Shown here: positions 4,721 to 18,242 of the stretch, piece by piece
Position numbering within the stretch: position 1 is the stretch's first letter
Layout: every line of letters starts with the position of its first letter
From: Erysipelotrichaceae bacterium
GTDB lineage: Bacteria > Bacillota_I > Bacilli_A > Erysipelotrichales > Erysipelotrichaceae
Assembly (NCBI GenBank): GCA_030604855.1
Contig: JAUVVC010000006.1
Coordinates: 60,001 to 92,000, forward strand
Length of the DNA: 32,000 nucleotides
Direction: 5' to 3'
Position numbers and translations under genes: made by a program
The notes under the pieces: model-generated
Told to the model about the DNA's origin: nothing
Seen by the model: the letters and a program-made list of their open reading frames with translations, nothing else
The model's database searches: none

Positions 4721-5176
4721 TCATCTCACAAACAACATCAAACCTGCAACCGTTAAGCCCAAAACGACACCCCCAATGACTTCGAACCACTGATGTCCCA
4801 AAACCTCTTTGATCTTCATCAAATAGATGGGATCATCCAATTTGATGGTTGAGAGGGTCTGGATGTCCTTGACCAATTGTTGGGTCAACTGAATGTTTCG
4901 TCCAGCATAATAACGGACATTGGCCGCATCATACAAGACAATCAAGCTGAAGATCAACACCACGGCGAACAGTGTGGAAGAAAAACGTTCTTGAAAGCCG
5001 ACCGCCAAGCTTAACGCAGAGACGGTTGATGTATGGGAGGATGGAAAACCACCGCTGTCCCAAAGTAGACGGGATTCCCATTTACCGGTTCGATAATAGC
5101 GAAAAACAGGTTTTATGGCTTGTGCGATTAGGTTGGCTGAGATGGCAGCCCAAAATGGATATAGATTACCGAGCAT
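4721..5176 (-). CDS. Divergent PAP2 family protein (DUF212, acid phosphatase/vanadium haloperoxidase-related)
   Basis: GGFPSSHTSTVSALSLAVG...VLYDAANVRYYAG...LGHQWFEV is the DUF212 signature. Start set at ATG 5176 (MLGNLYPF, GAGGAA RBS). The annotated 5350 start would run through the divergent promoter and into the S1 gene. Confidence 0.78.
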   Translation of the reverse strand: MLGNLYPFWAAISANLIAQAIKPVFRYYRTGKWESRLLWDSGGFPSSHTSTVSALSLAVGFQERFSSTLFAVVLIFSLIVLYDAANVRYYAGRNIQLTQQLVKDIQTLSTIKLDDPIYLMKIKEVLGHQWFEVIGGVVLGLTVAGLMLFVR

Positions 5177-5191
5177 AGTTTCCTCGTTCGA

Positions 5192-5228
5192 TATTATAGC
5201 ACAGAACAAAAAGTCCTGTGCTATAATA
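5192..5228. promoter_or_regulatory. Divergent promoter pair built from a perfect 13-bp inverted repeat
   Basis: TATTATAGCACAG (5192-5204) and CTGTGCTATAATA (5216-5228) with an 11-nt spacer. Each arm reads TGcTATAAT (extended -10) in the outward direction, correctly placed ahead of the RBS and ATG of the genes at 5176 (-) and 5249 (+). Confidence 0.5.
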
Positions 5229-5248
5229 ATTACGCTAAAGGAGTCTGT

Positions 5249-5614
5249 ATGAACTATCGGGTCGGTCAAATCATCGAAGCACAAATCACGGGCATCAAAC
5301 CTTACGGGGCTTTTGTGAGCGTGGATGAAAATGTCAGTGGTTTGATCCATATTTCTGAATTATCCGATGGGTTTGTCCGTGATGTCGAGAGTTTCGTCAA
5401 AATGGGTGAGAAGGTCAAGTTGAAGGTGTTGGAAGTCGATGAACAGAACCATCAATTGCGTCTTTCCCTTAAGGCGGTTCAAATGAACTCGCGTAAATCA
5501 CGTCCACGCATGAAACCAATGATCAAATTAAAAGAGAAGATTGGTTTTGCGTCATTGAAAGCACAACTAAATGATTGGGTTAAAGAAGCTCAAAAGGAGA
5601 ACAAGCATGATTAA
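5249..5614 (+). CDS. S1 RNA-binding domain protein (general stress protein 13 / YabR-like)
   Basis: [39 protein letters not shown]...[21 protein letters not shown] is a canonical S1 fold sequence. AAGGAG RBS. Confidence 0.82.
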
Positions 5615-6881
5615 GATGGATTTACAGTATGCTCATGTGAGCGATGCATTTGCAGGGTATCAAGCCGAGGTTTCCAAGTATCATCACCAAATGATCGAAA
5701 AGACTGGTTTGGGAAATGATTTCTTGGGATGGTACACCCTCCCTTTTGATTACGATAAAGCTGAGTTTGAATTGGTGAAACAATTAGCCAAGAACATTCG
5801 TGAGAAAGCAGACGTCTTCATTGTCTGTGGCATCGGTGGCTCGTATCTGGGTTCACGTGCGGCCATTGAAATGGTTCAAGGCATTTTCCCGAAACGGGAT
5901 GTGGAAGTCTTCTTTGTTGGGAACACGTTCTCAAGTACGTATATCCTTCAATTGATGGAGAAGGTCAAAGATAAGAGTGTTTATGTCAATGTCATTTCCA
6001 AATCAGGCACAACCACAGAAACAGCCATAGCCTTCAGACTGTTTGAACAATTCTTGGTTGAGAAATATGGAGTGGAAGGCAGTCGTGAGCGCATTGTTGC
6101 GACAACAGACAAAGCTAAAGGCACACTGAAAAATCTTGCGACCCAAAAAGGGTATCAAACCTTGACCATACCGGATGATGTCGGGGGTCGTTATTCCGTC
6201 TTGACATCGGTTGGTTTACTACCGATTGCGGTGGCGGGCTTGGACATCGATGCGATGATGCAAGGCGCACGGGATGCGGCTGAAGCACACAAGTCGGAAA
6301 TGATTGAGGAAAACCCTGCGTATCAATACGCAGTCAGTCGTCGAATCCTTGAAGCGAAGGGCAAGAACATCGAGCTCTTCGTGGCTTATGAAACCCAACT
6401 AAGCATGCTTGCGGAGTGGTGGAAGCAACTCTTTGGGGAGTCGGAAGGGAAAGAGGATAAGGGATTGTTTCCGGCGTCCGTGAACTTCTCGACGGATCTT
6501 CACTCGATGGGTCAATTCGTACAAGAAGGATCCAAGGATCTCTTTGAAACTTTGATTCTTGTGGAAAAACCGAACTTGGATCGCTCGTTCCCAAGTGATG
6601 CGGATAACTATGACAACATGAATTATCTTGCGGGTAAGACACTGGATGAAGTGAATAAGAATGCGGCTTTAGGGACGCTTCAAGCGCACCATGATGAAGG
6701 TGGAATTCCAAACATCTTGATCACCTTGCCAGAGATGAGTGCATACAGCTTCGGCTATCTGGCTCAGTTCATGTTCATTGCCTGTGGCATGTCGGTGTAT
6801 CTCTTGGGGGTCAATCCTTTCAATCAACCAGGTGTTGAAGTTTATAAGAAAAACATGTTCCGCTTGTTGGGCAAACAATAA
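5607..6881 (+). CDS. pgi: Glucose-6-phosphate isomerase
   Basis: Short Firmicute-type PGI: [41 protein letters not shown]. Start at ATG 5607 (AAGGAG upstream) with an 8-nt ATGATTAA overlap with the S1 gene. Confidence 0.92.
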
Positions 6882-6885
6882 AAGT

Positions 6886-6922
6886 AAAAGCTGGTCCTAG
6901 TGAATTGAACCAGCTTTTTTTT
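6886..6922. terminator. Bidirectional terminator between pgi and apbE
   Basis: AAAAGCTGGT ... ACCAGCTTTT 10-bp stem followed by a T-run. The complementary A-run serves the minus strand. Confidence 0.65.
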
Positions 6923-8048
6923 ACGGTTTTAAGCGTGATTGGATGCCCTCTGAATGAACGACGGAGAAGCCGACACTCTCGATGGATGCGACCGGTGCCT
7001 GGTTGAGCTCATAAACCCAAGTGGCTTCAATCGTGTCGTTAGGATAGGTGGTTCGTAGCTCATCAACAAGCTTCAAGGCCTCTTCATAAGGAAGAATGAA
7101 CATCGCCTTTGATAAGGCTTCCGCAGCCCCTGCGCTTAAGCTTGTGGCGACGGTGACGGAATGCAAAGGTGTTTCAACAGGGAATAAGGTGATCGGATCG
7201 ATCAGATGATGATAGTATTTGCCATCTTCCGCAAGATAATAGTTCTGATTGTCTCCGGATGTGGAGATAAAGATGCTTTCATTGAAATATAAGGTGTCCA
7301 CGCTTCCATCCGCAAAGATGACGTTACGCTTTGGTTGAGCGATGCCGACACCCCATTCATCCCCATTGGGTTTGGTTCCGATCGTGATGATCGAACTGTC
7401 CCCGATATTGATGATGGCGGTCTCTAAGCCTGCGTCTTTGAGCTTATTCACCGCAATATCAATGGCGAAGCCTTTGGCGATGCCACCGACATCCAAGCGT
7501 GTGCAAGGGTTGGTGATGAAGACGGTATTGGCTTGATCATCTATTTCGACAAAGCCCCAACCTGTGCAGGTGTCCGCTTGTTGGAGTAATCCAAGACTTG
7601 GGATCCGTCCGAATTCAGTGGGATCGGCTGCGTTCATCAGTTTGCCTTCATTGCGATAATCGGACCAGATATCGAGTACGGCACCCAGTGAAACATTGAA
7701 GGTATTTTGACTAAGACTTGCCCAGTCCCGTGCGAAGACTAGTAGATCGATCAAGTTTTGATCGACTTCGACGGCTTTGATGCCAGCTTGATCGTTGATG
7801 GTTTTAAGGTTGTTTAGGTTTGGGTAGTCGTTGTATCGATCAAACAACTGACCGAGATAGGACATCTCTGTCTTCAATTGTTCAAAGTATTTATCAAACT
7901 CTGCCTGACTGTTGGTATAGGCCACAAAGGTTACGGGCGCATCGTTGAAGCCAAGATTGATGGCCACATTGCTGTAACGATCAGGGGCTTTTGCACAGCC
8001 GACGATCAGTAGACTGAGGGTAAGGATTAAGAGCATTTTTCGTTTCAT
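6921..8048 (-). CDS. apbE: FAD:protein FMN transferase (ApbE family) lipoprotein
   Basis: Signal peptide with lipobox LLIVGC. ApbE-family blocks DVGGIAKGFAID and HHLIDPIT. AGGAG RBS. Divergent from the rnf operon, whose subunits it would flavinylate. Confidence 0.88.
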   Translation of the reverse strand: MKRKMLLILTLSLLIVGCAKAPDRYSNVAINLGFNDAPVTFVAYTNSQAEFDKYFEQLKTEMSYLGQLFDRYNDYPNLNNLKTINDQAGIKAVEVDQNLIDLLVFARDWASLSQNTFNVSLGAVLDIWSDYRNEGKLMNAADPTEFGRIPSLGLLQQADTCTGWGFVEIDDQANTVFITNPCTRLDVGGIAKGFAIDIAVNKLKDAGLETAIINIGDSSIITIGTKPNGDEWGVGIAQPKRNVIFADGSVDTLYFNESIFISTSGDNQNYYLAEDGKYYHHLIDPITLFPVETPLHSVTVATSLSAGAAEALSKAMFILPYEEALKLVDELRTTYPNDTIEATWVYELNQAPVASIESVGFSVVHSEGIQSRLKP

Positions 8049-8064
8049 ATTGGTCTCCTGGGTT

Positions 8065-8073
8065 ATTATACCA
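8065..8073 (-). promoter_or_regulatory. Extended -10 promoter for apbE
   Basis: Minus strand reads TGgTATAAT, about 12 nt upstream of the AGGAG RBS. Confidence 0.4.
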
Positions 8074-8119
8074 TATGCATATTGCTTTACAAAAATGTGT
8101 TTTTGTGTGTGCTCGAGTA

Positions 8120-8128
8120 TGCTATAAT
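8120..8128 (+). promoter_or_regulatory. Extended -10 promoter for the rnf operon
   Basis: TGcTATAAT at 8120-8128, about 50 nt upstream of the rnfC ATG. No good -35, which is consistent with the extended -10 class. Confidence 0.4.
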
Positions 8129-8179
8129 TATCATTGATTCGATAAACTATTCACGAATTAGGAAAGGTTGGGTGAAGGT

Positions 8180-9472
8180 ATGTCTTTTTTGACTGGACCA
8201 GGTAGAGAACATCTTAATGGTCACAAAGAGGAAACCCTGCATAATGAGATCGTGCGGGTTAAACCAAAAAAAGAAGTTTTTGTGCCTTTAAATAATGGGT
8301 CAGCAACGAAAGTTGATGTCTATGTTAATGAAGGGGACAAGGTTCTTGTCGGTACGCTTTTAGCGCGTCGCAATGACCATTTCAATGTGCCAATCTATTC
8401 ACCGGTATCCGGTGTCGTTGGGGCAAAGAAGAATATGATGCATTCTGTGTTGAAACCACAGGAACATCTCATCATCGAAGATGATGGTAAGTATGAGAAA
8501 GTGGAATCTTTCAAACCGCTTGATTATACCGTCGCATCTCGTGAAGAATTGGTAAACTTCATGATGGAAGCCGGTATCGTGGGCTGTGGTGGAGCAGGTT
8601 TCCCATCTTACTTAAAGTATAAAAATCCAGTTGACATCAACACCTTGATCATCAATGCGGTTGAATGTGAACCTTATATCACGTCCGATTATCGCTTCAC
8701 CAAAGAAAGCTTGGAGGATTTGTTGGTTGGGGTTCGTGCTTTGCTTAAGATGAGCACCGCACCTAAGGCCATCATTGCGATCAAGAAGTCGAAGAAAGAA
8801 ATGTGTGAACAACTTGAAGCAGTGTTGAAGGGCGATCCTTCGATTTCAGTCTTCAAGACACCGGATGTCTATCCAATGGGTTGGGAGCGCACCTTGGTTT
8901 ATGAGTTTGCCAAGAAACGCTACAACCGTCTACCCTCTGAAGTCGGCATCATCGTTAATAATGTCACAACCGCGATTGCATTTGCACGTGCTTTGCAATA
9001 TGGTGAAGGCATTGTCGAAAAAGTCGTTACCTTCTCCGGTGATGGCTTGAAGAGCCCAACCAATGTGCGTGTACCTTTTGGTACGAAAGTATCGGAAATC
9101 GTTGCGCAGATCGGTGGTTATGCCAGTGAAGATGTTTTGGTCATTGCGGGTGGTCCTATGATGGGTAAAACAATTCCTACGGATGAATTCGTCATTACCA
9201 ACTATTCCAATGCGATCACAATCTTAAAGAATGTCAAAGTCGAAGAAATGGCGTGCATGCGTTGTGGACGTTGTAACGATACCTGTCCTGCAGGTTTGTT
9301 GCCGGTACGTATCAACAATGCGGAAAAAGCTAAGGATTTGGATTTGATTGTTAAATTGAGTGCGGACCAATGTATCGAATGTGGTCTATGTACCTATGTC
9401 TGTCCTTCGAAGATTGATGTGACGGAAGGTGTACGTCGTGCGAAACGCGCTTTGGCGTTGAGAAAGGGTTAA
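8180..9472 (+). CDS. rnfC: Rnf electron transport complex subunit C
   Basis: Two ferredoxin-type motifs, CMRCGRCNDTCP and CIECGLCTYVCP. GCGGAGFPSYLK nucleotide/FMN region. N-terminus MSFLTGPG matches RnfC N-termini, so ATG 8180 is preferred over TTG 8168. Confidence 0.9.
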   Translation: MSFLTGPGREHLNGHKEETLHNEIVRVKPKKEVFVPLNNGSATKVDVYVNEGDKVLVGTLLARRNDHFNVPIYSPVSGVVGAKKNMMHSVLKPQEHLIIEDDGKYEKVESFKPLDYTVASREELVNFMMEAGIVGCGGAGFPSYLKYKNPVDINTLIINAVECEPYITSDYRFTKESLEDLLVGVRALLKMSTAPKAIIAIKKSKKEMCEQLEAVLKGDPSISVFKTPDVYPMGWERTLVYEFAKKRYNRLPSEVGIIVNNVTTAIAFARALQYGEGIVEKVVTFSGDGLKSPTNVRVPFGTKVSEIVAQIGGYASEDVLVIAGGPMMGKTIPTDEFVITNYSNAITILKNVKVEEMACMRCGRCNDTCPAGLLPVRINNAEKAKDLDLIVKLSADQCIECGLCTYVCPSKIDVTEGVRRAKRALALRKG

Positions 9473-9478
9473 TTCGAA

Positions 9479-10981
9479 ATGAAATTCAACTTTAGAGTAT
9501 CACCGAACTATCGCACACCCTTATCGACACAACGTGTTATGTGGGAAGTCACTGCGGCGATCAGTGTGGTCTTGGCCTTTGCAGTATTCTATTACTTTAC
9601 GGAATTGGGTACGGATTATGGCATTCATGCCGTATTGATGATCCTTACGTCTTTAGCGGTTGCGATTGGAACCGAAGTGCTCTGGGCTTTGTTCTATAAG
9701 AAGAACATCCTCAAACATTTGAATACATCGTTCCCTTGGGTCATTGCTTTGATCTTCGTTGGTACGATGAGCATCAATCGTCCTTTATATGTTTCTGCTG
9801 TGAGTGTGTTTGCCGGGGTTTTCTTTGGTAAACTCGTCTTCGGTGGTTTTGGATATAACATCTTCAACCCAGCGGGTGTTGGTCGTGCAGTGGCGGCATT
9901 GTCCTTCAGTGGTTTTGTGACCAATAAGTTTGCGGATGTGGTTACAGGTGCGACAGCAAACCAAGTCATGCAAGGCTTGGGCTGGGTCATCACAAAGCCT
10001 GAAGCCGTTGATGCGTTCTTAAATCAATTTGGTGGTTTAAGTGGACTAGCGATTGGTTTCTATCCTGCAAGTTTGGGTGAGACCAGTACGATTCTCTTGT
10101 TGTTGGTTGGTATTTATCTCTCTGTCCGTAAAATCATCGATTGGAAGGTTCCATTGACCTTCATCGGTTCGATTTTCATCTTTACATATGCCATTGCATT
10201 ATTCAAAGGCATGGGTGTCTGGTATCCTTTGTTCCATATCGTCAGTGGTGGTGCGATGTATGCGGCGGTCTTCATGATCACCGATCCCGTCACGACACCG
10301 ACGTCGAGCATCGGACGGATCTTGTTTGCGATGGGGGTTGCCATCTTCGTGGTCATCATCCGTATCAAAGCTAATCTTCCTGAAGGTGTTGTTTATGGAA
10401 TTCTATTCATGAATATGTTGTCTCCTTTATTGGATCAAATCACGGATGGTTGGGTCTTTAAGGAAATGAAGAAATTCTATATTCAAATCGGTACCTTGTT
10501 TGTGGCTGGCTTGGCGGTGATCTTATTGGTCGCAAGTCAAATCTCCTACAATGAACCGGTTGTCGAAGTTGAACCTGTCGTTGTCATCAACTTGAAGGGT
10601 GAACCGGTTGTGGTATTGGCAGAAGCAGTATCGCCAACGGCTCTCGTTGTTTCTGAAACGGCTGAAGGTGATGTTACGACTTTTGTTGTAAACATCAATG
10701 GTTATGCGTTCCAAAGCGATCACGATGATGATCCTCAACCGAATACATTGGAGATCAAGGTCAATACTGCGACGCAAACGGTTGAAAGTGTCAGCTATGT
10801 GACTTTCTCAGATTCTCCGAATATCGGGGATAAAACGAATTCAGATGTCTTCTTGTCTCAATTTGTTGGCTTATCCATTGTGGATGAAGCCGCAAGTGTG
10901 GATGTCGTATCTGGAGCCACCATTACATCTCAGTCGGTTGTTCGTGCTGTTCGTGCCGCAATTGCAGCGGCTTTGGATTAG
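9479..10981 (+). CDS. rnfD: Rnf subunit D fused to a C-terminal RnfG-like TM anchor plus FMN_bind domain
   Basis: Polytopic NqrB/RnfD core with flavinylation motif DVVTGAT (T159) up to about aa 327. An extra TM helix follows (IGTLFVAGLAVILLVASQI), then a ~140-aa domain ending in DVVSGATITSQSV (T481). Confidence 0.88.
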   Translation: MKFNFRVSPNYRTPLSTQRVMWEVTAAISVVLAFAVFYYFTELGTDYGIHAVLMILTSLAVAIGTEVLWALFYKKNILKHLNTSFPWVIALIFVGTMSINRPLYVSAVSVFAGVFFGKLVFGGFGYNIFNPAGVGRAVAALSFSGFVTNKFADVVTGATANQVMQGLGWVITKPEAVDAFLNQFGGLSGLAIGFYPASLGETSTILLLLVGIYLSVRKIIDWKVPLTFIGSIFIFTYAIALFKGMGVWYPLFHIVSGGAMYAAVFMITDPVTTPTSSIGRILFAMGVAIFVVIIRIKANLPEGVVYGILFMNMLSPLLDQITDGWVFKEMKKFYIQIGTLFVAGLAVILLVASQISYNEPVVEVEPVVVINLKGEPVVVLAEAVSPTALVVSETAEGDVTTFVVNINGYAFQSDHDDDPQPNTLEIKVNTATQTVESVSYVTFSDSPNIGDKTNSDVFLSQFVGLSIVDEAASVDVVSGATITSQSVVRAVRAAIAAALD

Positions 10982-12724: not shown

Positions 12725-12919
12725 ATGGAAGCCGTCATTTATATCGCGGCCTTAGGTGGGTTCTATGCTTTGGTTTATTATTTGAACCACAAGACGCCGA
12801 AACCTGAGGGATGTGAATACATCGATGCGGCCTGTAATTCGTGCAGTGTAGGTATTTGCAGCAATCATCCATCGCAAAATATCATCAAGGAGGATATGAT
12901 TCATGTTGAGCGCAGTTAG
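12725..12919 (+). CDS. Small single-pass Cys-rich membrane protein of unknown function, embedded in the rnf operon
   Basis: 64 aa. One TM helix (AVIYIAALGGFYALVYYL) followed by CEYIDAACNSCSVGIC (C-x6-C-x2-C-x4-C). Starts 1 nt after the rnfA stop and overlaps the rnfB start by 17 nt. No family recognised. Confidence 0.5.
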   Translation: MEAVIYIAALGGFYALVYYLNHKTPKPEGCEYIDAACNSCSVGICSNHPSQNIIKEDMIHVERS

Positions 12920-13211
12920 TATGATGTTGGTCCTTGGGGCGGCTTTGGGTTTGCTCTTGGCGATTGCAGGTAAAGTCTTCTATGTGGAAATCGATACGCG
13001 TGTTGAACAGATCACGAACATGTTGCCAGGATACAACTGTGGCGCATGTGGTTATCCGGGATGCGCAGGTTTAGCCGATGCGTTGGTCAGTGGAGAGGCA
13101 AAGAGTCCAACTCAATGCAAACCTTCGACTGAGGCCCATCGTTCTCGGATCACCGCTTTCATGGAAACCGGTGTGGATCCACAAGCTCCAAAAGAGTCTG
13201 TACAAGCTTAA
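12903..13211 (+). CDS. rnfB: Rnf subunit B, minimal form (TM anchor plus N-terminal 4Fe-4S domain only)
   Basis: N-terminal TM helix, then LPGYNCGACGYPGCAGLADALV...QCKP, the RnfB-type C-x2-C-x4-C-xn-C cluster motif. AGGAGG RBS. Ends at 102 aa and is immediately followed by a terminator. Confidence 0.8.
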   Translation: MLSAVSMMLVLGAALGLLLAIAGKVFYVEIDTRVEQITNMLPGYNCGACGYPGCAGLADALVSGEAKSPTQCKPSTEAHRSRITAFMETGVDPQAPKESVQA

Positions 13212-13217
13212 TTTCTT

Positions 13218-13243
13218 AAAGATCGTGAAAGCGATCTTTTTTT
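13218..13243 (+). terminator. Rho-independent terminator of the rnf operon
   Basis: AAAGATCG-TGAAAG-CGATCTTT followed by TTTTTAT. Confidence 0.65.
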
Positions 13244-13292
13244 ATTTTAGGGGAAGTTCATGGAGGTGCGTATCTAGTAGTGAGGTGTTTGT

Positions 13293-13658
13293 ATGAAGGG
13301 TGTGATTCAGGCTTATGCATTGTTGGTTGTGTGTCTGGGTGTATCGCTCGGCATGATGATTGCGGTTCAATATGATGTCCTATTTTATAAGCATCAGTTC
13401 ATTCTGAAACAAAGCATGCAAGAAAGTATGCTGGAAAGTTTGGATCTGCCTTATCAGGAACGCGATCTGTATACGTTCAATCGTTTAATTGAACTCTTGA
13501 GCATGCGTATGGGTTCAAATCGAAGCGTAAATGTCAGTTTGATGGGATTCAATGCACAACCCTTGGCACTCAGAGTCAAATTAAGTGTATCCGATGAGAA
13601 TCACATCATCCCTTATTCCATTCATCTCGATAAAACCATGATAGAGGTATCCCCATGA
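13293..13658 (+). CDS. Putative TadE-like minor pilin / pilus assembly protein
   Basis: 121 aa. N-terminus MKGVIQAYALLVVCLGVSLGMMIAV is a short polar head plus a hydrophobic helix. It parallels the TadE-like protein at 16941 in size and N-terminus. First gene of the tad-like cluster, with an ATGA overlap to the next gene. Confidence 0.4.
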   Translation: MKGVIQAYALLVVCLGVSLGMMIAVQYDVLFYKHQFILKQSMQESMLESLDLPYQERDLYTFNRLIELLSMRMGSNRSVNVSLMGFNAQPLALRVKLSVSDENHIIPYSIHLDKTMIEVSP

Positions 13659-14356
13659 AACAGAAGTATTCTTTATTGCATTTCGGTGTCGCTTTAGGTT
13701 TGTGTTTACTCTTTATGGGTGGAAGCTTGTTGTACATTCACAATCAACTTGAGCTGGTGGAAGTCTATGTCGCAAGAGAAAACTTACCGGCACGGACGCA
13801 CATCAGTGAGAACAGTCTATCTAAAATCAAAGTTCCCAAAGCGTATCTCAGTGAAGATGCGATTACGGATAAAGCTCAAATGTTGGGAAAATACGTCAAA
13901 ATCAATGCATCGATTCCAAAGGGAAGTCTTGTGTACACTTCAACGATTGAAGCTTTGGATGAAAGCATCGATCAACCCAGTCTTTTATTGAAAAACAATC
14001 AGGCAGTCTATGCGATTGATGTCAGTTTGACCAGTACATCTGGAAATACATTGCAGATTGGATCGAAAGTAGATATTTACGGAACTTTGAAAGTCGGACG
14101 TGAGACAAAGGTCGATTTACTTTTCAAACAGGTTCGAGTGATCAGTGTCAAAGATAAGAATGGTAATGAGGTCGATCGTAAAAGCAATCAGATGCCCAAG
14201 CTATTATTGGTTGCATTTGATCAAACTGAAATCCCGTTGATTACCAAATTGATCGCAATGGGCGAGATCACCATCACACCAACTGCGGAGTTCTTGAGTG
14301 AGGATGAGTGTGTCCTCAATGAACATTCACTTCTATTGGAAATCCTCTATGCTTGA
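13655..14356 (+). CDS. CpaB/RcpC-like Flp pilus assembly protein
   Basis: N-terminal TM anchor, then a SAF-like segment (VEVYVARENLPARTHISENSL...IPKGSLV) and a beta-rich C-terminal domain (VDIYGT...VRVISVKD...LLVAFD), as in CpaB. Confidence 0.6.
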   Translation: MKQKYSLLHFGVALGLCLLFMGGSLLYIHNQLELVEVYVARENLPARTHISENSLSKIKVPKAYLSEDAITDKAQMLGKYVKINASIPKGSLVYTSTIEALDESIDQPSLLLKNNQAVYAIDVSLTSTSGNTLQIGSKVDIYGTLKVGRETKVDLLFKQVRVISVKDKNGNEVDRKSNQMPKLLLVAFDQTEIPLITKLIAMGEITITPTAEFLSEDECVLNEHSLLLEILYA

Positions 14357-15365
14357 TAACTTTGATTTTGGAGTGATTCAGTCGTATGTCGATGATCCAA
14401 TGGTTACGGATATCAATTACAATGGTCGCCAATGTTGGATCGATCATCTTCGTAAAGGACGATATCCTTTAGCACCTTTTGATGCCCATGAAGCGATGCA
14501 GATACTGGTTTATAAAATTGCGAACTATGTGAATCTACCTTTCAATGCGACCAGTCCTGTCTTGGAAGCAGAAACTGAAAGTCTGCGTATCAGTCTATTG
14601 CACCCCAGTGTTTCGAAAGGGGGATTAAGCCTCTCTTTACGCAAAACACCTGCGCTCTGTCGTTTACACGATGCAGAGACGGGGATTAAGGCTTATGCGC
14701 CGGAATGGGTGATCAGTTTATTGCAGGAAGCTGTCAGGCATCGTAAGAACATCTTAGTAAGTGGGCTTCCGGGTTCAGGTAAAACCGAATTTGTAAAGTT
14801 TCTGATGGAGAGCATTCCAGCTCAAGAACGCGTGATTACGATTGAGGATAGTCTTGAACTTCGTTATGGTGATATCCATCCGACAAAAGATCACGTGATG
14901 CTTAAGGTTCAGGAGCGCTTTGGCTATGAGCAAGCCATCAAAACAAGTCTGCGCCAAAGACCGGATTGGATCTGTGTCTCTGAGGTCAGGGGTGCCGAAA
15001 TCATGTATCTTCTGCAGAGTATTTCAACGGGAACCAGTTTGATCAGTACAATTCATGCGGAGAGCGCAATAGCGATACCAGCGCGGATGTTGATGCTCAT
15101 GCCAGGGTTTGATCTGAACAATCAAAGTCTGCTTACCATGATTCATGATTGCATCGACTTTGGCATTCATTTGGAGGTCAATCATGATGGACAGAAAGTC
15201 GTACGATCGATTCGAGAGTTGGTCCAATTTAAAATCAATGAGAACTATGAACAAGAAAAGAAAACAATCTATCAAAGCGATGATAAAAACAAAGCCGTTC
15301 GCTACCAAAGCCTATTTGCAAGTAAAAAAGCTAAAACTCAAAGAACTCCTTTGGATCTTCAGTGA
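14349..15365 (+). CDS. tadA: TadA/CpaF-type (VirB11-like) secretion ATPase
   Basis: Walker A GLPGSGKT, Asp box ITIEDSLEL, Walker B-like RPDWICVSEVRGAE, His box STIHAES. N-terminal VTDINYNG...WIDH motif. Start ATG 14349 overlaps the upstream stop (ATGCTTGA). Confidence 0.85.
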   Translation: MLDNFDFGVIQSYVDDPMVTDINYNGRQCWIDHLRKGRYPLAPFDAHEAMQILVYKIANYVNLPFNATSPVLEAETESLRISLLHPSVSKGGLSLSLRKTPALCRLHDAETGIKAYAPEWVISLLQEAVRHRKNILVSGLPGSGKTEFVKFLMESIPAQERVITIEDSLELRYGDIHPTKDHVMLKVQERFGYEQAIKTSLRQRPDWICVSEVRGAEIMYLLQSISTGTSLISTIHAESAIAIPARMLMLMPGFDLNNQSLLTMIHDCIDFGIHLEVNHDGQKVVRSIRELVQFKINENYEQEKKTIYQSDDKNKAVRYQSLFASKKAKTQRTPLDLQ

Positions 15366-16059
15366 GTTGGCTATAACCATTTGGATCGCCACACGCTTTG
15401 GACTCCCACGACAATCTATCTTTATTCTTTTCATCACGACGATCGCACTGACCCCTCTGTTCTTTCGTTATCAATTGCAATGGATCAAACAAGAACAAGC
15501 CTTTTTCAATCTGACGGATTTTCTCCAACAATTCATTGCGAGCTTTAAGTCACACCCAAAAATATACGCTGCGCTATTGGAATGTGAGGACATCACACAA
15601 CATCAATTACACAAGGATGTGAGGTTTTGGATCGAGGGACTCGAGAAGGGTGGATACCCTCAGGAACACGCCAAAGCGTTCATGGCGAAATATGGTCATT
15701 TCACTATTGGGAATATGGTGCATCTCATGTTGGCGGTGGAGAATTATGGAAGTTTCCAGTATGCCGAAGGATTTGAAATCATTCAAGATGACATTGAGGA
15801 ATGGATTGAAGATACCTATGCCTTCAAACAGGAACAAGTCCAGACGCAACGGAAGATTCAGATACTCTCCTTATTTTCAATGGGCATCGCTTACATGAGC
15901 CACAACATGCTTTTCAAATCGGATCTGGTCAGTGAACTTGGTTTCTACCATACCAGTCTGATGTTGTTCTTCGGCTTGATTCTGCTCACACTCTTCTTTG
16001 CGCAAAAGATGATCGCGGTGCCTTGGATTGAGAAGAAGGAGTTGATATGGAGCGCTTGA
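15280..16059 (+). CDS. TadB-like platform protein (T2SS-F family). Start uncertain.
   Basis: N-terminal TM pair, a ~150-aa helical cytoplasmic domain, and a C-terminal TM pair. Candidate starts are ATG 15247, ATG 15280 and TTG 16316-equivalent at 15316, and none has a clear RBS. Every candidate start overlaps the ATPase gene. Confidence 0.55.
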   Translation: MIKTKPFATKAYLQVKKLKLKELLWIFSELAITIWIATRFGLPRQSIFILFITTIALTPLFFRYQLQWIKQEQAFFNLTDFLQQFIASFKSHPKIYAALLECEDITQHQLHKDVRFWIEGLEKGGYPQEHAKAFMAKYGHFTIGNMVHLMLAVENYGSFQYAEGFEIIQDDIEEWIEDTYAFKQEQVQTQRKIQILSLFSMGIAYMSHNMLFKSDLVSELGFYHTSLMLFFGLILLTLFFAQKMIAVPWIEKKELIWSA

Positions 16060-16793
16060 TCTTTAGTTTGATCATCTTAGTCTTATGGAGATTGGGTGAT
16101 CCTTGGTTGAATGACCACTTGATGAACATACGCGAGAAAGACTGTGTTCGACTGGAAAATGTTCTTAAAATCAAGTTGGACCATACCTGGATGCTGGAGC
16201 GTATCCAACGTTTGAAACATCTTCGATATGCGATTCTATTGGTCACATTCGATATTCGTTTTGCTTATCTGGTTCTCTTTGTTTGGATCTTTGTTTATAA
16301 ATCACCGTATCTTCGTTTGAAACATCAAGCGCGCAAACACATTCAATTGGTGCGTTACCAATTTCCTATCTATCTTCGTCAGCTCCAGATCCTCCTACAA
16401 AACAACACCGTTGTAAATGCGGTGGAGCAGTCGTTGGCGTATGTGCCCGAAGTGCTTAAAGACGATATCCATGTCTTTCATTCGGCACTCTTGGAAGATT
16501 CACGTTCACTCTCCACCTACATCACACAAATGCAGGCTTACCAACTTCCTGAGATCACCCGTGCTTTCAAATGGCTCTATCGTTACCAAAGCATTGGTTC
16601 TCAGGATGCTTATCGTCAGTTTAATCGTATGATTCTATCGACATCGAAATGGTTGCGTCAAGCACGCATCCATCAAAAACAGAATGCCGTTGGAATATAT
16701 CAATGGATGGGAATGTTGCCTCTGGTGGGTGTCACCGTGGTCTTCATTTCAGCCATGTTAAGTGTCGCACTGACACTCTTTGAAAGGGGGTGA
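16047..16793 (+). CDS. TadC-like platform protein (T2SS-F family)
   Basis: Same TM / helical domain / TM layout as the upstream gene. AAGGAG RBS. 13-nt overlap with the upstream gene. Confidence 0.5.
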   Translation: MERLIFSLIILVLWRLGDPWLNDHLMNIREKDCVRLENVLKIKLDHTWMLERIQRLKHLRYAILLVTFDIRFAYLVLFVWIFVYKSPYLRLKHQARKHIQLVRYQFPIYLRQLQILLQNNTVVNAVEQSLAYVPEVLKDDIHVFHSALLEDSRSLSTYITQMQAYQLPEITRAFKWLYRYQSIGSQDAYRQFNRMILSTSKWLRQARIHQKQNAVGIYQWMGMLPLVGVTVVFISAMLSVALTLFERG

Positions 16794-16797
16794 ACAC

Positions 16798-16941
16798 ATG
16801 AAGGCGTTTTTTGAAGAATATGGTTTGGTTTTGGTCGTAACCGTCATCGCAACAGGCATGATTACGTTCTCGGAGACATTTAAGACAACGATGCAAACAA
16901 CTCTCGAAACTCAATGGTCGGAAATGACGACAGGTAGCTGA
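16798..16941 (+). CDS. flp: Flp-family (type IVc) pilin-like protein, 47 aa, not in the ORF track
   Basis: Hand translation: MKAFFEEYGLVLVVTVIATGMITFSETFKTTMQTTLETQWSEMTTGS. EYGL followed by a hydrophobic helix is the Flp core motif. AAAGGGGGTGA RBS 5-6 nt upstream. The stop overlaps the next ATG (TGATG). Confidence 0.6.
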   Translation: MKAFFEEYGLVLVVTVIATGMITFSETFKTTMQTTLETQWSEMTTGS

Positions 16942-17279
16942 TGAAAGGTGCATTTGAAACGGCTTTAGTGATGTTGTTTGGCATGATGTTCATGGTTATG
17001 GGAATGGATTACATGAAGGTTGTTATGATGAATAATCAGGCACGCTTGTTGGCTGAAAGCAGTTTGGCAATCTTGGAAAACCAAAATCGTTACGACGCAG
17101 CGGTTCAAGTCTTGATCGATCATACCAAAGACACTTGTACATCCTGCATCTTGTTGATTGAACCGCATCTCGATCATCCTGGACGTTACCGTGTCATCGT
17201 AAACTATCCGATCGAATTGAAGCATATCCGTTATCACACCATGGCGAAACTCGAGTTATTAAGCCGTCCCTTAAGTTAG
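16941..17279 (+). CDS. TadE-like pseudopilin
   Basis: 112 aa. N-terminus KGAFETALVMLFGMMFMVMG resembles the TadE N-terminal motif (xxxVEFALVxPxLL). Confidence 0.5.
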   Translation: MKGAFETALVMLFGMMFMVMGMDYMKVVMMNNQARLLAESSLAILENQNRYDAAVQVLIDHTKDTCTSCILLIEPHLDHPGRYRVIVNYPIELKHIRYHTMAKLELLSRPLS

Positions 17280-17301
17280 TGCAGGAATCTGCACTTTCTT
17301 T
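17278..17301 (+). terminator. Rho-independent terminator of the tad-like operon
   Basis: AGTGCAG-GAAT-CTGCACT followed by TTCTTTGCTT. The stem starts within the stop codon. Confidence 0.55.
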
Positions 17302-17329
17302 GCTTGTGATTTTACGGTAAAATTGAAGC

Positions 17330-18091
17330 ATGTTAATCACCATTGATGTCGGCAATTCCAATATTGTCTGTGTAGTCTATTCCAAACTGAAAGAACGTCT
17401 TTACGATAAACGTTTTGAAACCATCAAAGAGAACATTGAGGAAGCGTATCCAACGTTTGTCAAAGAAGAGTTGTTGTTTTTAAAGGAGCGATTTGCATGT
17501 GAGGCGGTCATGTTGAGCAATGTTGTTCCCGCAATCGATCAAGTCTTAGTAAATGCTTTAAAAGAAGGTTTGGGAATCGATGTTTATCGCTGTGATTTGA
17601 GCACCGTACCAGAGTTCAAAGTGCTTTTGGAGGATCCTCGTGAACTGGGGGCGGATTTTATTGCGACCAGCTATGGTGCGATGGCAAAGTATCCTTTACC
17701 GATCATTGTAGCGGATCTCGGATCTGCGACGAAAGTAAGTGCGTTGAACCTAGAGGGTGATTTCGCAGGTGGAATCATCATGCCGGGTTTGCGAATCGCT
17801 CAAGATGCACTGAATCGTTTCATCCCACATCTCCCTCAGATTCCACTTGTCGTACCGAAATCCGTTTTGGGAAGTGATACGATCACGGCAATGCAAGCAG
17901 GTTTGATGTATTCTACGATTGATTCCGTTGAAGGCATTGCACGTAGAATCGAACTCAGTTTCAATGCAAAGTGTTCAAAAATCCTAACAGGTGGCTTGTC
18001 TGTATTGATTCATGAGGATACGGAAGACTTCGTTTATGAACCGTATTTATTGAATGAAGGCTTGTTTGAAATCTTCCAACTTTTAAAGTGA
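17330..18091 (+). CDS. coaX: Type III pantothenate kinase
   Basis: MLITIDVGNSNIV (the DxGNT/S phosphate-1 motif), ADLGSATK, GGIIMPG and TGG blocks typical of CoaX. Confidence 0.88.
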   Translation: MLITIDVGNSNIVCVVYSKLKERLYDKRFETIKENIEEAYPTFVKEELLFLKERFACEAVMLSNVVPAIDQVLVNALKEGLGIDVYRCDLSTVPEFKVLLEDPRELGADFIATSYGAMAKYPLPIIVADLGSATKVSALNLEGDFAGGIIMPGLRIAQDALNRFIPHLPQIPLVVPKSVLGSDTITAMQAGLMYSTIDSVEGIARRIELSFNAKCSKILTGGLSVLIHEDTEDFVYEPYLLNEGLFEIFQLLK

Positions 18092-18163: not shown

Positions 18164-18242
18164 GGCGATCGTGGCGAAGTTGGTTAACGCACCGGATTGT
18201 GGTTCCGGCATTTCGCGGGTTCGAGCCCCGTCGGTCGCCCCA
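18164..18242 (+). tRNA. tRNA-His (GTG anticodon), genomically encoded CCA
   Basis: Hand-folded cloverleaf. 8-bp acceptor including the His-specific G-1:C73 pair (GGCGATCG / CGGTCGCC). Anticodon arm CCGGA-TTGTGGT-TCCGG. T arm with GTTCGAGC. 3' CCA. Putative promoter TTTACT-17-TAAAAT at 18121-18149. Confidence 0.85.

Follow-up and report, generated by a model that had tools for sequence, protein, structure and literature searches.

We analysed a stretch of 32,000 nucleotides from an Erysipelotrichaceae bacterium (GenBank assembly GCA_030604855.1, contig JAUVVC010000006.1, positions 60,001 to 92,000), here called the window, which contains seven co-directional and translationally coupled genes, o1 to o7, on the forward strand at positions 13293-17279 (from the list of open reading frames, ORFs, and direct reading of the junctions). 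We propose, with a probability of roughly 0.6, that this operon encodes a minimal filament machine of the Tad kind (type IVc) belonging to a Firmicute-specific lineage, whose predicted subunits would need no prepilin peptidase. A first-pass annotation made from the sequence had described the locus as a compact Tad/Flp-type machine with no peptidase, TadZ or secretin gene of its own, and profile comparisons support this core reading for four of the genes. The Tad-like reading is essentially right, but the class III signal peptide, a defining mark of Tad and type IV pilins, was not found.

Small subunits that appear to be made without a leader

Relatives of the locus were collected by a degenerate-pattern scan with one genome per species. 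The scan found 427 loci with relatives of the ATPase encoded by o3, and the best 80 of these 427 were analysed. The product of o6 starts with MKAFFEEYG and continues with a hydrophobic helix and a short polar tail, and its length is that of a mature Flp pilin. Residues M1, K2, F4, F5, E6, E7, Y8 and G9 are invariant in the alignment of the o6 family. In 66 of 70 loci a start codon coincides exactly with M1 (ATG in 57, GTG in 5 and TTG in 4); the other four, from Erysipelothrix, have ATA at the M1 site and a GTG three codons upstream, which allows an extension of at most 3 residues. About half of the 70 loci have an in-frame stop codon 0-15 codons 5' of M1 and no alternative start, and a leader peptide is therefore impossible in these loci. 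Nearly all of the 70 loci have a strong Shine-Dalgarno element, GGAGGTGA or GGGGGTGA, about 3-9 nt 5' of the o6 start, and the 'KGGE' extension present on some o6 ORFs is this element read as protein.

The basic leader, Gly(-1) and class III signal peptide by which a Flp-type major prepilin is recognized are not found in o6, whereas annotated Flp and TadE references have a canonical leader that ends in Gly and is followed by xxxxEY or xxxxE (for example G/ATAIEYG). The hhalign comparison of o6 with four annotated Flp pilins gave an alignment of 28 columns with 43% identity and with the EYGL residues in register (E = 0.0023, probability 12.7%); Flp is the best-scoring of all references for o6, but the match is weak and below significance. 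The annotation of o6 as a 47-aa Flp-like pilin thus holds for the EYG motif, the size and the register of the alignment, and fails for the leader and the Gly(-1) site. The o6 family is narrow: among 1.84 billion representative proteins it amounts to 8 clusters at the 50% identity level. As a side observation, the exact 47-aa product with its ATG start is not in a collection of 15 billion proteins in which the products of neighbouring genes are present; gene callers seem to choose an upstream TTG for o6 or to skip the gene.

A similar N-terminus is found in o7, which starts with MKGAFE followed by a hydrophobic helix. All of 28 diverse homologues keep M1 and E6, and nearly all keep K2. Residue 3 can be G, A, S, I, L or M, and this variation excludes a conserved Gly(-1) site. 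Cleavage after Gly3 (MKG/) was considered for both o7 and o1, and was rejected in view of the variable residue 3. As judged from start codons and alignments, o6 and o7 are shown to be translated directly in what would be the 'mature' form, consisting of Met-Lys, three or four residues, Glu and a hydrophobic helix. There is then no basic leader to remove from either protein, from which we infer that no peptidase is required, and the lack of a pilin-cutting peptidase in the locus would be explained by leaderless predicted subunits.

Within the locus the peptidase gap is real. Pfam scans found no A24 peptidase in the window, and a hidden Markov model (HMM) of limited sensitivity, built from four annotated proteobacterial TadV/CpaA proteins, found no match in the window, nor at a distance of up to about 6 kb from the 80 related loci. 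No ParA/TadZ-like ORF was found in the operon or the window. The statement that the locus lacks an A24 peptidase, TadZ/CpaE and a secretin is therefore upheld for the ORFs of the window (Pfam and the TadV HMM), but a gap in the locus is the weaker way to put it: the subunits themselves have no leader and no Gly(-1) site.

Structure prediction was carried out with AlphaFold2 (AF2) on alignments of homologous-protein matches. The model of o7 (pLDDT 89.2) begins with a helix of 47 residues, followed by a short helix and a three-stranded sheet, and this modelled fold is a pilin-like "lollipop", similar in outline to small type IV pilins. By hhalign, o7 reaches no more than E = 0.02 against TadE; it has no PF07811 match and no leader. 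The family DUF4320 matches 10 of the 28 o7 homologues (best 0.0014, sub-threshold) as well as the pXO2 counterpart, and the o7 profile finds (hmmsearch) proteins of the Listeria plasmid pFV4 (8617-8973, 19 bits) and of pXO2 (8726-9088, 16 bits) and a Ralstonia protein in the TadE position (12.7 bits). We consider o7 a candidate minor pilin. As a matter of speculation, the pair K2-E6 (i, i+4) in o7 could mimic the pair formed by the N-terminal amine and Glu5 in mature pilins; position 2 is T, S, Q or D, not K, in the EYG proteins of Lachnospiraceae described below.

The remaining small membrane protein, o1, consists of MKG, one transmembrane (TM) helix and an outer domain of about 95 aa. Its homologues, found in 48 loci, conserve K2, P90 and E114 and have no Glu at position 5 or 6, and hhalign detected no similarity of o1 to TadE, Flp or CpaB. 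The earlier label of o1 as TadE-like is thus withdrawn in favour of a weak likeness to DUF5411, the only recurrent Pfam match of the o1 family (5 of 23 members, best 0.0019, sub-threshold); for the syntenic proteins of pXO2 and pFV4 the values with DUF5411 are 0.0013 and 0.01. The matches to DUF5411 and DUF4320, though sub-threshold throughout, recur and are specific. Possibly o1 serves as an accessory or tip subunit.

The most conserved protein of the operon is o6, with a mean pairwise identity of 0.70 compared to 0.56 for the ATPase. Such high conservation is unusual for exposed major pilins, and suggests a structurally constrained fibre that may be short or retractile. Wall-spanning adhesion or uptake, including DNA uptake, would fit such a fibre better than the role of a variable exposed adhesin.

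Motor, platform and CpaB-like protein

The ATPase o3 matches Pfam T2SSE at 2.2e-27, and its best solved relative in a profile search of the PDB is Caulobacter CpaF (1.1e-31, residues 4-315), followed by an archaeal GspE-like ATPase, HP0525/VirB11 and FlaI. Three reports describe CpaF as the bifunctional motor of Tad pili (PMC12019362, PMC11300603, PMC6920026). In the alignment of homologues, Walker A, the Asp box, Walker B and the His box are all present and invariant, the invariant stretches being GLPGxGKTE (Walker A), RVITIED, LRQRPDW..SEVRG and TG..STIHA, and the N-terminal extension of CpaF is missing. The description of o3 as an ATPase with all four boxes that is short for its family is accurate. 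The description of it as a plain TadA/CpaF is not: in a neighbour-joining tree, a crude one from which archaeal sequences were left out, the ATPases of Erysipelotrichaceae, Lachnospiraceae and the pXO2/pFV4 'VirB11' group form one clade (100/100 bootstraps), apart from proteobacterial CpaF/TadA and from VirB11/TrbB, with the deeper order not resolved. Among the ATPases of the plasmid collection, o3 is closest to the 'CpaF/VirB11 family' protein of Listeria pFV4, at 207 bits, and then to that of Bacillus anthracis pXO2, at 186 bits, compared with 100-147 bits for annotated CpaF proteins.

Single-sequence Pfam and NCBIfam scans gave no matches for o4, o5, o6 or o7, and for these proteins only family-wide scans and hhalign comparisons with annotated Tad proteins were informative. 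The hhalign references were taken from annotated Tad loci on plasmids. Against these, o4 matches TadB at 93.2% (E = 2.9e-7, 210 columns) and TadC at 52%, while o5 matches TadC at 70.2% (E = 4e-5, 150 columns), TadB at 8.5% and the pooled TadB and TadC proteins at 88%. T2SSF is the top Pfam family for the homologues of both proteins, although sub-threshold in each case (10 of 30 members, best 1.4e-4, for o4; 10 of 30, best 4.1e-4, for o5). In hmmsearch, the o4 profile places the pXO2 protein at 7107-7940 first, ahead of three TadB proteins, and the o5 profile places the pXO2 protein at 7937-8686 first (28.9 bits), ahead of three TadC proteins. The two are mutual paralogues (hhalign 73%, E = 3e-5), each with a single T2SSF-type domain, and the AF2 model of o5 is all-helical (pLDDT 84). 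The proposal of two T2SS-F-type platform proteins is thus supported, with o4 as the TadB-like and o5 as the TadC-like inner-membrane protein and the cross-assignments weaker. Sequence-profile matches of o4 and o5 in the PDB (CENP-Q, B2 protein) were dismissed as spurious.

The protein o2 combines SAF and RcpC domains, the latter a beta domain, with a TM anchor at its N-terminus. It matches SAF above the Pfam cut-off (1.2e-5), RcpC slightly below it (6.7e-6, 26.4 bits versus 28.8) and TIGR03177 at 8.9e-15 (54.6 bits, under the 71-bit cut-off), and its hhalign comparison with six annotated CpaB proteins gives 99.2% (E = 6.6e-20), in agreement with its initial assignment as CpaB-like. The earlier view that all parts other than the ATPase are recognizable by architecture only is consequently too strong for CpaB, and a fair one for o6, o7 and o1. 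By phmmer, o2 occurs in 64 of the 80 loci, and one Erysipelotrichaceae clade (L020-L025) has no CpaB gene. In L020 (1-6004) o1 directly abuts the ATPase gene, and the translations between rnfB and o1 read as a paired histidine kinase and response regulator, a large transporter-like membrane protein and a dehydrogenase-like ORF.

Distribution and related systems

The best 80 loci come almost entirely from Erysipelotrichaceae, with Dielma, Traorella, Copranaerobaculum and Erysipelothrix among the named genera; four are contigs of metagenome-assembled genomes that are 93-94% identical. The order o1 to o7 is kept in most of the 80 loci, and the gene set is conserved far beyond chance. Among loci with ATPase identities down to about 50%, those examined have retained the rnf and coaX flanks as well, which indicates that the locus is old and vertically inherited in Erysipelotrichaceae. 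A literature search on leaderless pilins, Tad systems in Erysipelotrichaceae and DUF4320 found no description of the operon. The 2025 Bulleidia study reports a different, canonical tad locus with tadV, together with comG, in Erysipelotrichales, and numerous TadA homologues in Erysipelotrichia (PMC12786226).

The well-known Tad/Flp systems (Aggregatibacter tad, Caulobacter cpa; L083, L085-L088) share with the Erysipelotrichaceae locus a CpaF-superfamily ATPase followed by TadB and TadC paralogues, a CpaB/RcpC protein, a subunit of about 45-60 aa whose hydrophobic helix opens with EYG, and accessory proteins that are small, pilin-like and have a conserved Glu close to the N-terminus. The Erysipelotrichaceae locus differs in that its subunits have no leader and no Gly(-1); it lacks the A24 peptidase, TadZ/CpaE, secretin, CpaD, TadD and TadG; its 338-aa ATPase has no N-terminal extension and belongs to a separate clade; and its platform and pilin-like proteins score under all curated family thresholds. 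The EYG motif lies 6 residues from Met1 in o6, whereas in the Flp references it lies 4 residues from the cleavage site. A contrasting case among the loci inspected is a canonical monoderm Tad locus on a Mycoplasmatota plasmid (L084; CP074574.1, 4225-11761), which has genes for a SAF protein, a TadZ-like AAA ATPase, CpaF, two platform proteins and four pilin-like proteins with normal leaders, such as MKKILKSKKG/SPSLEY.

In Lachnospiraceae, three loci (L077-L079) have an ATPase of the same clade (43% identity), two or three leaderless M-x5-EYG proteins with ATG starts, Shine-Dalgarno elements and the six-residue spacing seen in o6, an o7-like protein starting with MKMVIEH and an o1-like protein starting with MKSVIV. 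They differ in that TadB and TadC are fused into one protein of 436 aa (TadB-C), that genes for a ParA/TadZ-like protein and a large surface protein are present and that the gene order is another, and no CpaB-like match occurs in the stretch seen. In L078 (1820-9336) the ParA/TadZ-like gene is accompanied by an 873-aa surface protein. These loci probably correspond to those described in two earlier papers. According to Imam et al. (2011), a few tad-like loci of Clostridial genomes have distantly related genes and encode no protein with a prepilin motif (PMC3244431). Miller et al. (2022) classed an operon of Roseburia, Ruminococcus and Eubacterium with CpaF, PilC/GspF and DUF5411 as a 'postulated secretion-related system', most of whose genes resemble no known pilus component (PMC9523054). 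Neither paper contains the leaderless EYG subunits or the Erysipelotrichaceae operon.

The module of the Bacillus cereus-group plasmids pXO2, pAW63 and pBT9727 and of the Listeria plasmid pFV4 has the order DUF5411-like, ATPase, TadB-like, TadC-like and DUF4320-like, and also encodes single-helix proteins of 48-49 aa. The neighbours of the plasmid ATPases are homologous and syntenic to o1, o4, o5 and o7 (L082, pXO2 5131-9253; L081, pFV4 5401-9610). In pAW63 and pXO2 the module is annotated as VirB11 and hypothetical proteins, inside the 42-kb tra region of pAW63 (PMC1196294). It differs from the Erysipelotrichaceae locus in being plasmid-borne within conjugation regions, in having no CpaB-like gene, in the greater length of its ATPases (408-443 aa) and in small proteins without MKxxxE or EYG N-termini. 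The comparison suggests that the pXO2/pFV4 'VirB11' module is a Tad-like apparatus and not part of a type IV secretion system (T4SS). A broader claim, that a peptidase-free type IV-filament machine with subunits translated 'mature' forms a lineage spanning Erysipelotrichaceae, Lachnospiraceae and pXO2/pAW63-type regions, seems to us nearly an even bet, with the odds leaning slightly against it.

The Com pilus is likewise a minimal monoderm type IV filament that has a single ATPase and a conserved major subunit and does without a secretin. DNA uptake is a conceivable function of both systems. However, Com has a single two-domain ComGB in place of the TadB/TadC pair of the Erysipelotrichaceae locus, its pilins have class III leaders cut by ComC, and it has no CpaB; by the features used to recognize ComG, the present locus does not qualify, and o3 scores 64 bits against the ComGA model, for which the cut-off is 300.

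Alternative explanations

The operon might encode an ordinary Tad pilus whose prepilins are cut by a peptidase encoded elsewhere, such as the ComC of comG or a stray TadV. Peptidases are known to be encoded apart from, or shared between, the systems they serve, and MSH loci are always without one (Denise et al. 2019, PMC6668835), so that a peptidase-free locus is unsurprising in itself; what is surprising is that the subunits are leaderless. A peptidase needs something to cut, and in o6 and o7 Met-Lys sits right before the Glu and the hydrophobic helix, any upstream extension is stopped in many loci, and no Gly or Ala is conserved at -1, while the annotated Flp and TadE references do show the canonical leader and G/xxxxE site. 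We therefore regard this explanation as very unlikely, even though the comG loci that could supply ComC are reported to be vertically inherited in Erysipelotrichales (PMC12786226). Slightly less likely again is a domesticated piece of a Gram-positive conjugation system, with 'VirB11' and its membrane partners retained for cell-cell contact or DNA transfer. The case for it lies in the closest plasmid ATPases, those of pFV4 and pXO2, which share one clade with o3 and have syntenic neighbours, and in the VirB11 label given to the pAW63 ATPase in its tra region (PMC1196294). Yet the plasmid module itself looks Tad-like, and plasmid homology is then no argument for a T4SS mechanism. In the Erysipelotrichaceae loci examined the operon is chromosomal, between rnf and coaX; no relaxase, VirB4, VirD4, coupling protein, integrase or repeats were found in the 32-kb window; and the partners of the ATPase are TadB/TadC-like and CpaB-like, not VirB6/8/10-like. 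The scores of o3 with VirB11 and TrbB (123 and 112) are less than half of the cut-offs (250 and 305).

A machine derived from a filament but without an external pilus, either a short pseudopilus or piston as in the type II secretion system (T2SS) and Com, which would drive proteins outward or draw DNA inward across the wall, or a static membrane complex, is also unlikely, but deserves more weight than the two foregoing explanations. It would accommodate o6 as the most conserved protein of the operon, and it agrees with the secretion-related classification of the Clostridial operon with CpaF, PilC/GspF and DUF5411 (PMC9523054); Tad-dependent DNA uptake is moreover reported for Liberibacter (PMC8513845). 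On the other hand, genes for a substrate, a nuclease, ComEA/ComEC-like proteins or a secreted protein were found neither in the window nor in the related loci inspected, and the sequence does not distinguish a short fibre from a long one.

Besides the reported comG system, several observations weigh against our proposal of a peptidase-free Tad-kind filament machine. The likeness of o6 to Flp is below significance, and o6 has no match to Pfam Flp_Fap. By NCBIfam score o3 is about equally near to TadA and VirB11 (TIGR03819, the TadA-type model, 125.8 bits; VirB11 123.2; TrbB 111.6; all far under the cut-offs), and its nearest plasmid relatives are located in conjugation regions. Placement in a conjugative T4SS, named by the first-pass annotation as the result that would count against it, is contradicted by the membrane partners, which match TadB and TadC, by the low VirB11 and TrbB scores given above and by the lack of any other T4SS or relaxase domain in the window. 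Searches of the PDB with Foldseek gave no significant match for the o7 model, solved pilins included, and the only meaningful match for the o5 model was SpoIIIAB (6bs9, probability 0.84, TM-score 0.60, not significant). A GspF-like cytoplasmic domain has been described for SpoIIIAB. A sporulation channel of the spoIIIA type was considered and rejected, as SpoIIIAA is not among the NCBIfam matches listed and CpaB and a TadB/TadC pair are present. It is also possible that o6 and o7 are cut by some other protease. Finally, no sigma-70-like promoter was found in the 50 nt 5' of o1 (13244-13292), and the only promoter-like match nearby on the forward strand falls inside o1; transcription may occur by read-through from rnf or from a non-consensus promoter.

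Proposed mechanism and implications

If the operon does encode such a filament machine, then by analogy with CpaF/TadB/TadC systems a hexameric CpaF/VirB11-type ATPase, o3, would dock on a heteromeric platform of o4 and o5 and spend ATP on lifting small single-helix subunits from the membrane into a helical fibre. The membrane-anchored CpaB/RcpC protein o2 could form a collar around the base of the fibre in the wall zone. The bulk subunit would be o6, while o7 and possibly o1 might prime or cap the fibre. To judge from the N-termini, the short Met-Lys start would set the orientation of the helix as N-in.

Reviews define the type IV filament superfamily by its dedicated peptidase and by pilins that carry a class III signal peptide, and PilFind and the MacSyFinder models search for these features. 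Tools that seek a leader and a peptidase would miss a lineage with leaderless subunits, and this blind spot may be the reason that the genes are annotated as hypothetical and that gene calls lack the 47-aa product with its ATG start. The broader claim made above, if true, would break the rule that defines type IV pilins by leader cleavage and would define a Firmicute lineage of Erysipelotrichaceae chromosomes, Lachnospiraceae loci and plasmid conjugation regions. Subunits that assemble unprocessed would amount to a natural experiment on the purpose of leader cleavage and N-methylation, and with six or seven genes the apparatus would be the smallest Tad-like machine for reconstitution. The 'VirB11' module of the pXO2/pAW63 family would be re-labelled as a Tad-like apparatus. 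As the carriers include gut genera (Dielma, Traorella, Copranaerobaculum) and Erysipelothrix, the phenotype, be it adhesion, biofilm formation or DNA uptake, would be of practical interest.

Operon structure and genomic context

The arrangement of seven co-directional genes between two terminators was recovered in full, with all ORFs and both hairpins at the places first described. The coordinates are collected in the table below.

Table 1. Features of the operon and its surroundings, in positions of the 32,000-nt window
Feature	Position	Strand	Remarks
Upstream terminator-like hairpin	13218-13243	+	9 pairs (13218-13239), T-run tail TTTTTATTTTA; closes rnf operon
o1	13293-13658	+	121 aa; earliest possible start following a stop
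o2	13655-14356	+	233 aa
o3	14349-15365	+	338 aa counted from ATG
o4	15280-16059	+	Start uncertain (15247, 15280 or 15316); overlaps ATPase gene
o5	16047-16793	+	248 aa
o6 Shine-Dalgarno element AAGGGGGTG	16784-16792	+	Read directly; overlaps o5 stop TGA 16791-16793
o6	16798-16941	+	47 aa
o7	16941-17279	+	112 aa; earliest possible start following a stop
Downstream terminator-like hairpin	17278-17301	+	7 pairs, 4 GC (17278-17295), T-rich tail; overlaps o7 stop codon
RnfD	9479-10981	+	C-terminal FMN_bind fusion
rnfB, first piece	12725-12919	+	64-aa Cys-rich ORF, no Pfam match
rnfB, second piece	12903-13211	+	102-aa ORF, PF04060 Fe-S domain only
tRNA-His	18165-18242	+	Anticodon GTG
17-nt exact direct repeat	16198-16214 / 17443-17459		Joins o5 and coaX
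35-nt repeat, 80% identical	15767-15801 / 17409-17443		Joins o4 and coaX

Direct reading of the sequence bears out each of the four tight junctions claimed for the operon, namely ATGA at 13655 between o1 and o2, ATGCTTGA at 14349-14356 between o2 and o3, an overlap of 13 nt at 16047-16059 between o4 and o5, and TGATG at 16939-16943 between o6 and o7. For o3 an alternative start exists at GTG 14298, which would give 355 aa; the ATG start agrees with the N-termini of homologues. The only gene border that had to be revised is that of o4, which does not begin at the stop codon of the ATPase gene. Its start lies inside the ATPase gene, at ATG 15280 or near it; in the source clade this start gives an overlap of at least 85 nt, compared with an overlap of 4 nt and an additional N-terminal helix on o4 in most relatives. 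A scan of 12800-17600 found two terminator-like hairpins, one at each border of the operon. Their count is not above chance (2 observed versus 3.6 +/- 2.4 in shuffled sequences), and the weight of this evidence is in their location at both borders.

The upstream flank consists of rnfC/D/G/E/A/B and the downstream flank of coaX, tRNA-His and opp, and all remaining large ORFs of the window are metabolic or housekeeping genes. Pfam scans of the ORFs found no integrase, transposase, secretin or T4SS gene in the window, and a repeat search found no repeats bracketing the locus, in keeping with what had been said of the flanks. The GC content of the locus (0.42-0.44) is similar to that across the window (0.41-0.48). 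An origin as a mobile element was rejected on the lack of repeats, integrase and transposase, the ordinary GC content and the kept synteny with rnf and coaX.

A few minor features of the window may be mentioned. The tRNA-His gene lies between coaX and the opp operon and is the only Rfam or ARAGORN match in the window. The rnfB gene is seemingly split or truncated into two ORFs, and RnfD carries its FMN_bind fusion in addition to a separate RnfG. The coaX copies of the 17-nt and 35-nt repeats listed in Table 1 adjoin each other, and both repeats probably arose by chance.

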